Source: Spirochaetia bacterium (GTDB taxonomy: Bacteria; Spirochaetota; Spirochaetia; UBA9216). Taken from it: DNA of 64,000 nucleotides. Location of the stretch: the NCBI GenBank assembly GCA_963675665.1, contig OY776510.1:1312001-1376000 (forward strand). Reading direction: 5' to 3'. A program made the translations under genes and the position numbers. Below are positions 36,849 to 39,713 of the stretch, in pieces. The notes under the pieces were generated by a model. That model was not told where the DNA came from. It ran no database searches and was given only the letters and a program-made list of their open reading frames with translations. Position 1 is the stretch's first letter, and every line of letters starts with the position of its first letter.

Positions 36849-37698
36849 AAACCCCTGTTTTGCGGAGCGACTCCCGCAGGCGGGTTCTGTCAGCTTTACA
36901 TGGCTTGGACAGGCGGGATTTCTTGTTGAAAGCGCTGAAGTAAGGATAGTTATTGATCCCTATCTGTCAGATTCGTTGTATGATAAATACAAGGATAAGA
37001 AATTTCCGCATGTCCGTATGGTCCCTGCTCCTCTGCGTCCTGATGAACTGACGCAGATTGATTTGGTACTGTGTACACACGGGCATACCGATCATATGGA
37101 TCCGGGAACTCTGCCGGTACTTGCTTCAGTCAATCCGGGATGCAGGTTTATCTGTCCGGCTTCTGAAAAGGAAAAAGCTCTGGACCGGGGTGTTCCGGCG
37201 GCAATGTTTATCGGCCTTGATGATGGAGGACGGTTTGACGACAGCTTAAACAGCGGCATCGTCGTATCGGCAGTTGCTTCTGCTCATGAGACGCTTGAAA
37301 AGGACAGTTCCGGCCGAAGTCTGTTTTTGGGATATGTGATCGGGATTAACGGTTTGAAAATATACCATTCCGGCGATTGTATTCCGTATAATGGCCTGTG
37401 GGAAAAACTGCTGAATCTGAAAATTGATATTGCATTTCTTCCTGTAAACGGGCGTGACGATTTTCGTAAATCCAACGGGATTCCCGGAAATTTTACGGTT
37501 GAGGAAGCTGCAGATCTCTGCAGCAACGCCGGAATAGAAGTTTTGATTCCTCATCATTTTGGAATGTTTGTTTTTAATTCCGGGGACCCTCAAAAAATTG
37601 AGCAGGTATTGTCGAAATCAGGTCTAAAATATACAATTCCCGAAATTGGTAAAAAAACTGAGTTTATTAAAAGGGAATATTCGGTAAGTTTTTTATAG
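36841..37698 (+). CDS. MBL-fold metallohydrolase (UlaG-like lactonase)
   Basis: WLGQAGF, IDPYLS, THGHTDHMD, YHSGD and PHHFGMF motifs. Confidence 0.88.
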   Translation: MVENPCFAERLPQAGSVSFTWLGQAGFLVESAEVRIVIDPYLSDSLYDKYKDKKFPHVRMVPAPLRPDELTQIDLVLCTHGHTDHMDPGTLPVLASVNPGCRFICPASEKEKALDRGVPAAMFIGLDDGGRFDDSLNSGIVVSAVASAHETLEKDSSGRSLFLGYVIGINGLKIYHSGDCIPYNGLWEKLLNLKIDIAFLPVNGRDDFRKSNGIPGNFTVEEAADLCSNAGIEVLIPHHFGMFVFNSGDPQKIEQVLSKSGLKYTIPEIGKKTEFIKREYSVSFL

Positions 37699-37719
37699 GA
37701 GGAATGATAAAAAGTCTTC

Positions 37720-37880
37720 ATGAGCTGGTGAATTGATATACTGCCTTAACTTTAATTGAGGCAGTAAGGTTACTGTTCGACATTTTTACTGGTCCGCGAG
37801 ACCGTTTAGGAGATTGAAGAGCCGTAACCGAAACATTCAATGGTCTGCGAGACCGGATAGGAGAATGGAACAATTCACCG
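37720..37880 (+). ncRNA. Putative IS110 bridge RNA with target-binding and donor-binding loops
   Basis: Outer stem GGTGAATTG/CAATTCACC; 5' hairpin ACTGCCT/AGGCAGT; GGTTAC/GTAACC stem; two loops built around GGTC(C/T)GCGAGACC hairpins, flanked by guide segments matching the target and donor sequences. Ends are approximate. Confidence 0.78.
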
Positions 37881-37914
37881 TATAGGCACTGCTTCAAACT
37901 ATTGGAGATAGAAC

Positions 37915-39027
37915 ATGAAGATGAGTATTGGCGTGGATCTTCACAAAACGCAGTTTACAGTATGCCTTTTAAGTGAAGACCGAAAAATTGATCAATTGGG
38001 AATGTATCCGACCAGCGGAAATGGTTATGGAGCATTTCTGAAAATGCTGGATGAATATTGTGAAGAGGAATATGAGTTGAGAGCAGCGGTGGAAACAACC
38101 GGGAATGCCCGTTATTTCCGCAATAAACTGTTAAAGGCTGGAGTCGAAGTGGTTGTAGTGAATACTTTGAAATTCAAGGTAGTGAATGAATCTGTAAAAA
38201 AGACAGACAAACATGATGCACGCACCCTGGCGGAGTTTCTTGAGAAAGACATGCTGCCTGAATCGATATTATGTTCCCAAGAGAGTGAGGATATTCGAAG
38301 GGTGCTGAAATCCAGGTCGATACTGGTAAAATCTGTTGTGTCGTTAAAGAACCAGGTGCATGGCTTATTACTTGGTTATGGAATAGAGACCAAACGCGGA
38401 CAGCTGCAGAGTAAAAAAGAAAGGCAGCGAATCCTGAACGGTCTCGAGGACCACGACTTTTACGGAAGCGCTGCCAAAACGGTAATACCGTTACTGGATA
38501 TGATAGATAATCAGGCATCGCAAGTCAAGCAGCTTGAAAAGGTTTTGGCTGAGCTTGTGGAGGACGATGAAGATGTTGAGCTTCTGCAGACAATACCAGG
38601 CGTGGGTCTAATAACAGCAGCAACAGTAAGAGCCTATACAGACGATATCGGCAGATATGATAGTGCGAAGAAATATGCAGCAAACGCCGGGCTTGTGCCA
38701 TGGGTGCAGAACTCAAATATGACAATACATCATGGACATATAACAAAGCGTGGGCCTGTAGAACTGAGGACAGCCTTCGTACAGATGGTGATGGGAATGG
38801 TTCGTATGCAAAAGAAGACCGGGACGTACCGAATAATGACGAAGTATGCAGCGATGAAGAAGCAGAAAGGCTCGGGTAAGAGTGTAATAGCTGCCGCCCG
38901 CAAGATGAGCACTTTGGTATATACAATTTTAAAAACCAGAGAGCCGTTTGATCCGATGAAAATGGCTTTTAGAAAAGAATACAGGGAAATGCAGGCAGCA
39001 GCATGGGAAGCTGTAATGGTCGGTTGA
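37915..39027 (+). CDS. IS110-family DEDD recombinase/transposase
   Basis: GVDLHK (D), AVETTG (E) and KTDKHDA (D,D); Transposase_20-like region LQTIPGVG..AGLVP...NS..GHITKRG..LR..AAARK. Confidence 0.95.
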   Translation: MKMSIGVDLHKTQFTVCLLSEDRKIDQLGMYPTSGNGYGAFLKMLDEYCEEEYELRAAVETTGNARYFRNKLLKAGVEVVVVNTLKFKVVNESVKKTDKHDARTLAEFLEKDMLPESILCSQESEDIRRVLKSRSILVKSVVSLKNQVHGLLLGYGIETKRGQLQSKKERQRILNGLEDHDFYGSAAKTVIPLLDMIDNQASQVKQLEKVLAELVEDDEDVELLQTIPGVGLITAATVRAYTDDIGRYDSAKKYAANAGLVPWVQNSNMTIHHGHITKRGPVELRTAFVQMVMGMVRMQKKTGTYRIMTKYAAMKKQKGSGKSVIAAARKMSTLVYTILKTREPFDPMKMAFRKEYREMQAAAWEAVMVG

Positions 39028-39089
39028 TATCCGACTAGATCATAAGCTTATATTTTTAGCTTGTGGTTGACTTTTTATAGGAGAAAAGA

Positions 39090-39713
39090 ATGAGTGATAT
39101 TTTTGAAACAATAGGCAGAATAAAACTGGTGCCGGTTGTCAAGATAGATGATGCAAAGGATGCTCCGGCATTGGGCAAAGCTTTATGCGACGGAGGGCTT
39201 CCGATTGCCGAGGTTACTTTCAGAACGGCAGCCGCAGAAGAGGCTATCAGGCTGATGGTGAAAGAAAACAGCGGGATGCTTATCGGAGCAGGTACCGTGC
39301 TGACTGTTGAAAACGCAAAAAAAGCGATTGATGCAGGAGCCGCGTTTATAGTGTCTCCGGGCTTCAATCCTGAAGTTGTAGATTTTTGTATTTCCCAGGG
39401 AATGCCGGTAACTCCGGGAGTTACAAACCCAACCCAGGTCGAGATGGGGTTGTCAAGAGGTTTAAAGGTTTTAAAGTTCTTTCCTGCTGAAGCCGCAGGC
39501 GGATTGAAGATGCTGAAGGCAATGGGAGCCGTATACGATGTGAAATTTATGCCTACAGGCGGAATTAACGCATCCAATTTGAAAGAATACCTGGCATATG
39601 ATAAAATACTTGCCTGTGGTGGAAGCTGGATGGTTAAAGCCGATCTGATCTCATCAGGGAACTTTGCCGAGATTACCAGACTGACTAAAGAGGCAATGGA
39701 ACTGACAAAGTAG
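39090..39713 (+). CDS. eda: KDPG/KHG aldolase
   Basis: EVTFRT, GAGTV, FIVSPG, LKFFPAE and MPTGGI motifs. Confidence 0.95.
   Translation: MSDIFETIGRIKLVPVVKIDDAKDAPALGKALCDGGLPIAEVTFRTAAAEEAIRLMVKENSGMLIGAGTVLTVENAKKAIDAGAAFIVSPGFNPEVVDFCISQGMPVTPGVTNPTQVEMGLSRGLKVLKFFPAEAAGGLKMLKAMGAVYDVKFMPTGGINASNLKEYLAYDKILACGGSWMVKADLISSGNFAEITRLTKEAMELTK

Follow-up and report, generated by a model that had tools for sequence, protein, structure and literature searches.

The 64,000-nucleotide window analyzed here (contig OY776510.1 of assembly GCA_963675665.1 from a Spirochaetia bacterium, positions 1,312,001 to 1,376,000) harbors, at 37702..39083 of its forward strand, an insertion sequence of 1382 bp located between a gene for a metallo-beta-lactamase-fold protein and a gene for a KDPG/KHG aldolase. 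The latter begins with the ATG at 39090, behind an AAAAGA spacer, and remains intact in the right target (39084..39713, + strand); its PF01081 domain (E 3.9e-66) agrees with the initial annotation of this DNA, in which the gene was called eda. The transposase of the element is encoded at 37915..39027 (+ strand), leaving non-coding ends of 213 nt on the left and 56 nt on the right. Fifteen full copies with 99.9-100% identity can be found in the single-contig 5.15 Mb genome. They share the same limits, all start with GAATGATAAAAAGTC and end with GTGGTTGACTTTTTATAGGAG, and the open reading frame (ORF) is intact in every one of them. Taken as a whole, the locus is best explained by a recently active RNA-guided insertion sequence of the IS110 family that is aimed at Shine-Dalgarno words, a reading that we consider very probable.

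The word TTTTTATAGGAG is read twice directly in the sequence, at 37690-37701, where it is followed by GAATGAT / GAATGATAAAAAG, and at 39072-39083, where it is followed by AAAAGAATG. The right-hand word is invariant in the 15 copies, directly behind an equally invariant GTGGTTGAC, which assigns it to the element. On the left, the word differs from copy to copy (aaAGGAG, ttTAGGAG, taTAGGAG, etc.) and therefore represents the native target, so that the perfect 12-bp repeat at this locus is a native site that by chance resembles the right end. On the same grounds, the repeat was rejected as a target-site duplication. Both terminal inverted repeats and a target duplication are absent, the bases shared by the target and the ends being AGGAG; the crossover point lies somewhere within this shared word, its finer placement being impossible from sequence. 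The native left target (37690..37701, + strand) consists of a T-run and the Shine-Dalgarno word TAGGAG, the left flanks of the 15 copies differing upstream of AGGAG, and contains the TAG stop codon (37696-37698) of the metallo-beta-lactamase-fold gene. The sequence statements of the initial annotation regarding the repeats, the loops and their register, the coordinates and the ORF all hold on rereading.

In this genome, the 15 copies follow a single insertion rule. Each of them lies directly behind a native ..AGGAG, 5-7 nt before the ATG of an intact gene and in the same orientation as this gene, with the ATG at +6 in 12 copies, at +5 in two and at +7 in one. The left-flank words are TATAGGAG in nine copies, TTTAGGAG in three, and ATTAGGAG, TAAGGAG and AAAGGAG in one copy each, with a variable T/A-rich stretch before AGGAG. 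All the downstream ORFs are open (93 to >500 aa) and 13 of the 15 display Pfam domains, among them phosphoglucose isomerase (PGI), a transketolase C-terminal subunit, a dihydrolipoyl-dehydrogenase-like protein, an Orn/DAP decarboxylase and KDPG aldolase. As background, in silico excision of the elements leaves 6564 AGGAG sites in the genome; at 910 of them, an ATG at +4 to +9 opens an ORF of 60 codons or more. Of the sites that match the loop-1 word GTTTAGGAG of the RNA described below at 7 or more of 9 positions, 13 of 256 at gene starts are occupied vs none of 1190 elsewhere (Fisher p 1.3e-10). A T at -6 is found in 13 of 15 occupied sites vs 16% of the gene-start AGGAG sites, and of the 47 genomic sites in which T-N-TAGGAG and an ATG are separated by 5-7 nt containing no more than one G/C, 11 are occupied.

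Relatives were collected by a protein-guided scan of one genome per species, which gave 80 loci with 32-79% protein identity. These belong mostly to Spirochaetota metagenome-assembled genomes (MAGs) but can also be found in Syntrophales, Desulfobacterales, Lentisphaeria, a Dehalococcoidales, a Dysgonamonadaceae and a Gracilibacteria bin. The same insertion rule applies to the multi-copy relatives of Syntrophales (9 copies), Oceanispirochaeta (10 copies) and Lentisphaeria (8 and 3 copies), and to Marispirochaeta, where 6 left and 6 right flanks were read at separate contig-end loci. The left flanks of relatives end in ..AGGAG; on the other side, the element finishes with TTGACTTTTTATAGGAG (in Lentisphaeria with ATCATAGGAG), and a spacer and an ATG come next. 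The right-flank set comprises 59 flanks from 23 lineages, with seven loci left out as their right end is cut by a contig end and five as they are unmatched by the pattern; one of these five, L043, visibly ends in ..TTTTTATAGGGG, with TAAAAACATG on the other side of the junction. An ATG is present at +3 to +9 in 54 of the 59 right flanks, with a mode of 6 (29 cases). Exceptions to the rule are L027, without a nearby ATG, and L084 and L088, whose left ends are unlike the shared copy. The expectation of the initial annotation that other copies would occupy the same type of site has thus been borne out, after (T)AGGAG and 5-7 nt before an ATG in this genome, and with an ATG at +3 to +9 in the great majority of the right flanks collected.

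The left non-coding end is predicted to encode a bridge RNA of about 160-180 nt (37719..37900, + strand, with inferred ends), as suggested by its fold energy and by compensatory changes. The minimum free energy of 37719-37900 is -57.1 kcal/mol (z -4.46), and no matching family was found in a scan of 37500-39300 against Rfam 15 with E up to 1. The left ends of 29 lineages were aligned and evaluated with RNAalifold and direct pair counts, and none of 500 shuffles reaches the observed covariation score. The 5' strand GGTGAATTG (37727..37735, + strand) and the 3' strand CAATTCACC (37871..37879, + strand), which are perfect 9-nt complements, form a long-range stem that is present in all 29 lineages, with a duplex z < -2 in 26 of them, and in compensatory forms such as GGTGAATTG/CAATTCACC, GGTGGAT/ATCCACC and GCGGATAATAGC/GCTATTATCCG. 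Since all the lineages have this stem, it is taken to close the donor-binding loop, the 5' stem-loop and the whole target-binding loop being enclosed. In the 5' stem-loop (37739..37766, + strand), 67% of cells are paired; its 3' strand can alternatively pair with 37887-37896, a competing helix with 79.7% of cells paired and double changes in 8 of 10 pairs.

The predicted target-binding loop (loop 1, 37768..37829, + strand) is made of an outer stem (37768-78/37819-29), a 5' strand CATTTTT (37781-87), a hairpin (37791-37803) and the 3' strand GTTTAGGAG (37804-12), and reads CATTTTT-ACT-GGTCCGCGAGACC-GTT-TAGGAG from 37781 to 37812. The predicted donor-binding loop (loop 2, 37832..37863, + strand) has the 5' strand (AA)CATTC (37832-38), a hairpin (37842-54) and the 3' strand GGATAGGAG (37855-63), and reads AACATTC-AAT-GGTCTGCGAGACC-GGA-TAGGAG. 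The outer stem of loop 1 is paired in 95.5% of cells, one of its pairs being UA in 11 and CG in 11 lineages, while pairing in the two apical hairpins amounts to 97-100%, 5-12 lineages showing GC/AU and CG/UA swaps. The similarity between the loops, which had been put forward as a hint to the origin of bispecific guides, is already known for the pseudo-symmetric loops of IS621 and adds nothing new on this origin.

Over the 29 lineages, the left target follows the 3' strand of loop 1, with agreement at position -6 in 28 of 29 lineages and at position -7 in 21 of 27. From -8 to -5, 86 of 111 cells match vs 60.3 with permuted guides, a value reached by none of 20000 permutations; when these targets are compared with the loop-2 strand, only 53 of 111 cells match. 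While the left target T(A/T)TAGGAG is associated with the loop-1 3' strand GTTTAGGAG in this genome, AAAGGAG is associated with GCAAAGGAG in Syntrophales, TAAGGAG with GTTAAGGAG in Marispirochaeta, CAAAGGAG with GCAAAGGAG in L042, L043 and L071, CAAGGAG with GTCAAGGAG in L067, AGAGGAG with ..CAGAGGAG in L044 and L090, and TTTAGAG with GTTGAGAG in L072, a Leptospira bin. The clearest case is Oceanispirochaeta, in which the target tACAGGAG and the guide GTACAGGAG have changed together while the donor is still ATAGGAG. Regarding the donor, its right word GAATG (37702..37706, + strand) covaries with the 5' strand of loop 2: the element start and this strand are GAATG/CATTC in 16 lineages, GCACG/CGTGC in three, GCATG/CATGC in two and GTATG/CATAC in one. 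From +2 to +4, 78 of 87 cells match vs 59.6 with permuted guides (0 of 20000 permutations), with a mismatch in seven lineages. The loop-2 3' strand is ATAGGAG in 28 of 29 lineages (AATAAGGAG in L090) and the same word stands in the right ends examined; this left donor being invariant, its covariation is uninformative. Covariation between guides and their sites across homologues, proposed as a check in the initial annotation, is accordingly found for two of the four guide strands, namely the loop-1 3' strand with the left target and the loop-2 5' strand with the donor. The lineages are kin and these figures overstate their independence, although several of the changes are unique events. From this covariation, the Shine-Dalgarno half of the target clearly appears to be read by the RNA, and it is highly probable that the element is programmed by RNA for the Shine-Dalgarno word. 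Two other candidate signals were rejected: a bottom-strand CT core, taken from the ..ACT that precedes the loop-1 hairpin, as this position is N-N-T over the lineages (ACT, AAT, ATT, GCT, GAT, TAT, TTT, etc.), and AATGA after the loop-1 GGAG as a donor handshake, as it is unchanged where the donor word of a lineage changes.

With regard to the right half of the target, loop 1 had initially been read as specifying TAGGAG followed by AAAAATG. The left half of this reading is upheld by covariation, while AAAA is not a conserved target word, as the 15 spacers have no word in common and are A-enriched only, and as the match to the guide is weak. An average of 2.60 A is found at positions -4 to -1 of the ATG in occupied sites vs 1.66 in unoccupied gene starts (p 0.0007), 1.70 in TAGGAG gene starts (p 0.002) and 1.83 in TAGGAG gene starts with a 5-7-nt spacing (p 0.008), and the 6-nt spacing is over-represented (12 of 15 occupied sites vs 287 of 895, p 2e-4). 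When anchored at the ATG, the match between guide and spacer across lineages amounts to 122 of 212 cells vs 85.9 expected (0 of 3000 permutations), a test that is confounded by base composition, AT-rich hosts having U-rich guides and A-rich spacers. On balance, we lean toward the spacer/ATG half being read by the RNA as well, in a loose manner.

It is possible, though we find it doubtful, that the RNA reads only the left half, i.e., the Shine-Dalgarno word, and that the nearness of the ATG, the spacing and the A-rich spacer are by-products of the AT-rich context of this word and of the loss of gene-disrupting insertions. Along with the lack of a word common to the spacers, such a reading is favored by the crossover-anchored match to the loop-1 5' strand, which does not reach significance in the genome (p about 0.1) and gives p 0.025-0.32 over six registers across lineages. 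Moreover, the CA of the nearly invariant loop-1 CAT pairs with UG across the loop in 27 of 29 lineages, an RNA-internal pairing that can explain the CAT, which may be partly structural. The left-half reading is also in line with the available excerpts of the literature, according to which IS621 reads just 2 bases to the right of its core and partial recognition can suffice in 'half-match' recombination. Selection against gene disruption, however, explains neither the A-richness of the occupied sites when compared with unoccupied ones having the same TAGGAG and 5-7-nt spacing, nor the over-representation of the 6-nt spacing, which counts against recognition of the left half alone. Other observations weigh, together with the crossover-anchored match, the compositional confounding and the internal pairing of CAT, against RNA-guided aiming at the whole start region. 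If loop 1 is read in the same register as loop 2, the ATG is expected 4 nt after GGAG and 6 nt are observed; position -8 of the left target shows no covariation (9 of 26, p 0.17); 10 of the 15 left targets in this genome have A at -7 where the guide has U, and, as gene starts with TATAGGAG and TTTAGGAG are occupied equally (9 of 43 vs 3 of 14), -7 is not discriminated in this genome. In addition, five of 29 lineages (L048, L070, L075, L091 and L049) are mismatched at the donor guide, five of the 59 right flanks are without a nearby ATG, and purifying selection alone could account for the absence of insertions at Shine-Dalgarno-like words within genes.

A mechanism devoid of RNA guidance, in which the transposase protein itself reads AGGAG, or in which insertion is random with survival only before genes, the loops being an mRNA leader structure, is very improbable. 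AGGAG is invariant and could, taken alone, be a protein-read word, but the bases beside it vary by lineage and follow the loop-1 strand, almost without exception at -6, rather than the donor. Furthermore, the first bases of the element follow the loop-2 strand, the helices keep pairing through compensatory changes, and the available parts of the published work indicate that homologous transposases require such RNAs. That the repeat is a relic or an assembly artefact and not a mobile element has a practically negligible probability. The element does collapse to one repeat in short-read contigs, as in the contigs X1-X4 obtained from four runs of one study and placed on 37300-39500; yet the 15 copies have 15 distinct flanks in a single-contig genome, the depth of the repeat in the runs is about 10 times that of the flanks (232 vs 22), the runs show many loose ends with different flanks, and each copy combines an intact ORF with near-identity to the others. 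Two short-sided joints (side 20) among X1-X4 are left without interpretation.

For the RNA-guided, Shine-Dalgarno-aimed element, a mechanism can be proposed in which base-pairing, by homology with IS621, ISEc21 and ISEc11, would be the physical basis of recognition and in which the bridge RNA is presumed to be expressed. The loop-1 3' strand GUUUAGGAG, which has the sense of the top strand, would read the left (Shine-Dalgarno) half of the target, and the loop-1 5' strand CAUUUUU, the complement of the top strand to the right of the crossover, would probably act weakly, in favor of A-rich spacers with an ATG at a distance of about 6 nt. Loop 2 would read the joined ends of the element itself in the same register, its 3' AUAGGAG corresponding to the right end and its 5' CAUUC to the complement of GAATG. 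Recombination within the AGGAG common to target and donor would then place the element between the Shine-Dalgarno word and the spacer, always oriented as the gene. The ends harbor a left subterminal inverted repeat ATAAAAAGTC (37707..37716, + strand), 10 nt long, 100% complementary to the right repeat GACTTTTTAT (39069-78) and overlapping the -10-like TGATAAAAA. Each repeat lies 5 nt from its own element end, and a longer repeat is found in Marispirochaeta. GATAAA in the left subterminal region is invariant over the 29 lineages. The right end (39067..39083, + strand) combines the -35-like TTGACT (39067-72), the right repeat and the donor word or replacement Shine-Dalgarno (39072-83), and TTGAC is kept in most right ends of homologues. 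In a circular intermediate, as reported for relatives, the joined ends would create a promoter made of TTGACT, 17 nt and TGATAAAAA (37705-13).

Once the element has inserted, AGGAG still stands at its former distance from the gene, and in all 15 copies this word is supplied by the element. This is read directly from the sequence and substantiates the proposal that the right end rebuilds the ribosome-binding site, the last 12 bases of the element serving in all likelihood as the new Shine-Dalgarno of the gene. The native AGGAG ends up before the first bases of the element, where GGAG-GA-ATG opens a 10-codon ORF, MIKSLHELVN, with a spacing that appears too short for a convincing start. No terminator-like site was found on either strand of 37500-39300, and the host gene would still be transcribed through the element, with continued downstream expression. 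The term 'safe harbour' strategy, used in the initial annotation, may be appropriate for such an arrangement. In four congeneric genomes, the beta-lactamase-fold gene stands beside the aldolase gene with a single Shine-Dalgarno and the element is absent, the words upstream of the aldolase gene being TTTAGGAG-AAATAGA-ATG, TTTAGGAG-AGTAAA-ATG, TCAGGAG-AGTGAAT-ATG and TTGGAG-AATTAA-ATG. The empty site anticipated in related strains is thereby found insofar as these orthologous sites are uninterrupted; they come from other species and do not represent the pre-insertion allele.

The transposase consists of 370 aa and matches PF01548 (E 9.3e-18), the N-terminal DEDD RuvC-like domain, PF02371 (E 1.4e-17), the C-terminal Tnp domain, and NCBIfam NF033542, 'IS110 family RNA-guided transposase' (216.8 bits, cut-off 140). 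It exhibits the motifs GVDLHK, VETT, KTDKHD and GLVPWVQNSN. Among the 26 lineages checked, VE.T and KTD..D are kept in all and G.DLHK in 22, the four most distant being unmatched. The catalytic-Ser motif GLVPWVQNSN (residues 259-268, 38689-38718) or a close variant is present in 25; in the 26th lineage, L043, the pattern search matched elsewhere, in a frameshifted copy. The catalytic Ser is kept and the next residue is N rather than G, i.e., Ser-Asn vs the published Ser-Gly of IS110/IS1111. The D, E, D and D of the transposase align with those of ISEc21, which, rather than IS621, is the only IS110-group protein compared, and for which the N-terminal 107 aa alone align, with 26% identity.

IS110-family elements have been divided, according to the available portion of Durrant et al. 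2024 (PMC11208160), into an IS110 group with a long left end and 2-3-bp subterminal repeats and an IS1111 group with a long right end and 7-17-bp repeats. In IS621, the 5' side of a loop carries the left target guide (LTG), which pairs with the bottom strand, and the 3' side carries the right target guide (RTG), which pairs with the top strand; both include the CT core (PMC11208160 and Hiraizumi et al. 2024, PMC11208158, available parts). The guide order of ISEc21 is that of IS621, while IS1111-type seekRNAs have the reversed order and an RNA region downstream of the gene (PMC11187229, excerpts); this source was relied upon for ISEc21 (L104), since its guide words gave candidates in both orders by eye. 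Like IS621 and the IS110 group, the present element has a DEDD/Tnp transposase and a long left end upstream of the gene. The RNA encoded there comprises a 5' stem-loop and two internal loops of similar appearance, both carrying an apical hairpin. One of these loops corresponds to the target and the other to the joined ends, the two strands of a loop pair with opposite DNA strands, one with the top and one with the bottom, and a -35 in the right end and a -10 in the left end would meet in the circle. In contrast to IS621, the strand order is opposite, as the 5' strand complements the right half and the 3' strand has the same sense as the left half. Rotating the target and donor of IS621 by 180 degrees with respect to the RNA gene would give this geometry. 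The word common to target and donor is the 5-base AGGAG instead of a CT dinucleotide, the right-hand guides begin directly after these shared bases and do not cover them, and the donor loop is closed by a stem between the 5' region and the 3' part of the RNA, with the 5' stem-loop and the target loop inside. The 10-bp subterminal repeat contrasts with the 2-3 bp of the IS110 group, from which the N after the catalytic Ser also differs.

Several features are, on the other hand, shared with the IS1111 group, namely the guide order, a subterminal inverted repeat within 7-17 bp and the GL.P....S motif. Unlike in this group, the RNA region lies upstream of the transposase gene and not downstream, the protein has 370 aa vs 330-350, and SN replaces S(T)G. 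A few IS1111-type elements with an upstream RNA region are described, e.g., ISMtsp17 (Siddiquee et al. 2024, PMC11187229, in the part available), and the combination of an IS1111-type order with an upstream RNA may already be present in ISfinder, although the literature searched gave no account of the RNA of such an element.

The element resembles IS900, another member of the IS110 family, whose insertions separate a Shine-Dalgarno-like word from a start codon at a distance of about 6 nt. The IS900 motif is, as written, in the orientation of that element, from which it follows that the IS900 transposase runs against the target gene; the present transposase is co-oriented with its target gene in all 15 copies. 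IS901, IS902, IS1110 and IS116 behave like IS900. The target motif given for IS900 of Mycobacterium avium subsp. paratuberculosis in the available part of PMC8141618 is CATGNNNNNNTCTCCTT, CATGN6TCTCCTT, the reverse complement of which is AAGGAGA-N6-CATG, and the 24-nt motif printed in this source had no match in the contig collection searched. A complementary-strand ORF of IS900 (hed) is said in the excerpts to use host signals; no element-spanning complementary ORF is present here, the longest having 133 aa. The present element also differs in bringing its own replacement Shine-Dalgarno, IS900 having been compared by its published motif and not by its RNA. The novelty that the initial annotation implied for Shine-Dalgarno targeting was set too high, as IS900 has already been reported to target translation-initiation signals, judging from the title of Doran et al. 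1997, cited in PMC8141618. A literature search, which did not extend to supplementary tables that may list AGGAG-type targets, gave the paper on IS900 targeting only, with no paper tying a bridge RNA or seekRNA to a ribosome-binding site and none on the present family. In the searchable literature, the upstream RNA with a guide order opposite to that of IS621 and ISEc21, the 10-bp subterminal inverted repeat, the donor loop closed by a long-range stem, and a conserved candidate antisense hairpin RNA in the transposase gene mirroring the target guide look new.

This last feature is a candidate antisense small-RNA gene in the coding sequence (38412..38528, - strand), comprising a promoter-like TTGACT-17-TATCAT (38528-38500), a 5' hairpin, an outer stem (38469-75/38423-29), a hairpin (38440-52) and a U-run (38422-38412). 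The strongest inverted repeat of the element is formed by the loop-1 hairpin together with its 3' guide (37790-37811) and 38432-38453 in the coding sequence (22 nt, 91%). Codons 173-180 (I-L-x-G-L-x-D-H) are complementary to the loop 1 of their own element at 17-20 of 23 positions in the 11 lineages with at least 67% protein identity. In these, the three variable guide bases match the antisense copy in 21 of 33 cells vs 11.5 when permuted (p 0.001), or in 15 of 27 when collapsed to nine distinct pairs (exact p 0.008). The region coincides with a local peak of synonymous-site conservation: 101 invariant residues have degenerate codons, eight of them use a single codon in all 10 compared lineages, and five of these eight fall within residues 173-184. 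The minus-strand promoter-like sequence has 10 of 12 matches, and all 19 lineages retain the TTGA and TA of this sequence unchanged (form TTGAcN-17-TATnnT) even though they fall on Val/Ile third positions and on the Ile codon ATA. The antisense structure, a small hairpin followed by a stem/internal-loop/hairpin and the U-run, is paired in 90.7% of cells with compensatory changes (fold z -3.66), a figure obtained by direct count of the named structure, RNAalifold on the whole antisense alignment giving only 3 pairs. The possible G-U pairs in the outer and apical stems number 17 on the antisense reading vs 1 on the sense reading, an asymmetry that points to an antisense RNA, and the antisense hairpin fits the GGUC-YNCGA-GACC form of both bridge-RNA hairpins. 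Gene conversion between the look-alike segments could, however, explain the covariation of guide and antisense copy without any function. Small RNAs, one of them antisense (Asr9), also regulate the IS110-family transposase gene of ISPpu9 from Pseudomonas putida, according to the available part of PMC8450116; unlike these, the present candidate lies in mid-coding sequence, is shaped like a bridge loop and mirrors the target guide, and nothing of this kind appears in that part of the text. A more far-reaching interpretation, which we regard as unlikely, is that the family runs on three RNAs: the conserved antisense promoter would drive a transcript of about 80 nt that folds into a third loop with the same architecture, whose 3' strand copies and changes with the target guide, acting as a guide-matched regulator or decoy, in addition to a bridge RNA with an IS1111-type order in an IS110-type layout that is aimed at start sites across several phyla.

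Other features can be noted at the ends and targets of these elements. A small hairpin just upstream of the -35-like TTGACT (39033-39066) keeps its shape but not its sequence among homologues, being AAGCT..AGCTT here and TAAGC..GCTTA, GCCTG..CAGGC or GTGAG..CTCAC elsewhere; in Marispirochaeta, it is part of the longer subterminal inverted repeat. Two identical copies of a relative in a Treponemataceae MAG (L068 and L069, about 1409-2650) retain the donor loop only in their left end. In a Spirochaeta MAG, the right flank of L046 is TTTTTATAGGAG followed by TTGAGCTCACGGTTGA, resembling the hairpin and -35 part of the right end of another copy, and may correspond to a nested or tandem insertion. 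A hairpin CC(C/T)GCATCCATGC(G/A)GG followed by a T-run and TTATAGGAG-ATG fronts many genes of this genome, with about 12 sites genome-wide, of which 4-6 carry the element. The hairpin is found in the left flanks of the copies at G000:C1 242916, 893425, 2622808, 3764803, 4928657 and 4950698, and similar hairpins stand upstream of the aldolase gene in two congeners. From its sequence, the arrangement looks like an intrinsic terminator or attenuator abutting the Shine-Dalgarno of the next gene. Finally, five small palindromes lie right after AGGAG, at G000:C1 ~2291903, 2400712 and 3764695 (+ strand) and at two minus-strand sites, all outside the window. They consist of the first 15 bases of the element, 6 nt and a near-perfect reverse complement, i.e., both subterminal repeats face to face, can also be read as a tiny ORF (MIKSPP-stop), and are followed by two further hairpins and the TTATAGGAG-ATG of a gene; one of them is 108 bp upstream of a full element copy. 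Such a palindrome could be a miniature derivative of the element ends or a host leader that the element end resembles.

The antisense hairpin, if functional, would add a new layer of control. The antisense RNA could bind the transposase or the Shine-Dalgarno half of the target, or mask the transposase mRNA where the target guide of the bridge RNA can also pair, and transposition would then be tuned to the very word for which the element is programmed. The element itself would be a natural example, present in multiple copies and in several phyla, of a bridge RNA directed at a functional signal of the genome and not at a repeat, and it connects the IS900 observation of the 1990s with an RNA-guided mechanism. 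For the engineering of bridge recombinases, it would offer a 5-base shared core, a left half that is strongly read and a right half that is loosely read, a reversed guide order and a different loop topology. Owing to the built-in repair of the Shine-Dalgarno, many sites per genome would be usable (47-116 were counted, of which 11-13 are occupied), and central genes such as pgi remain intact downstream.

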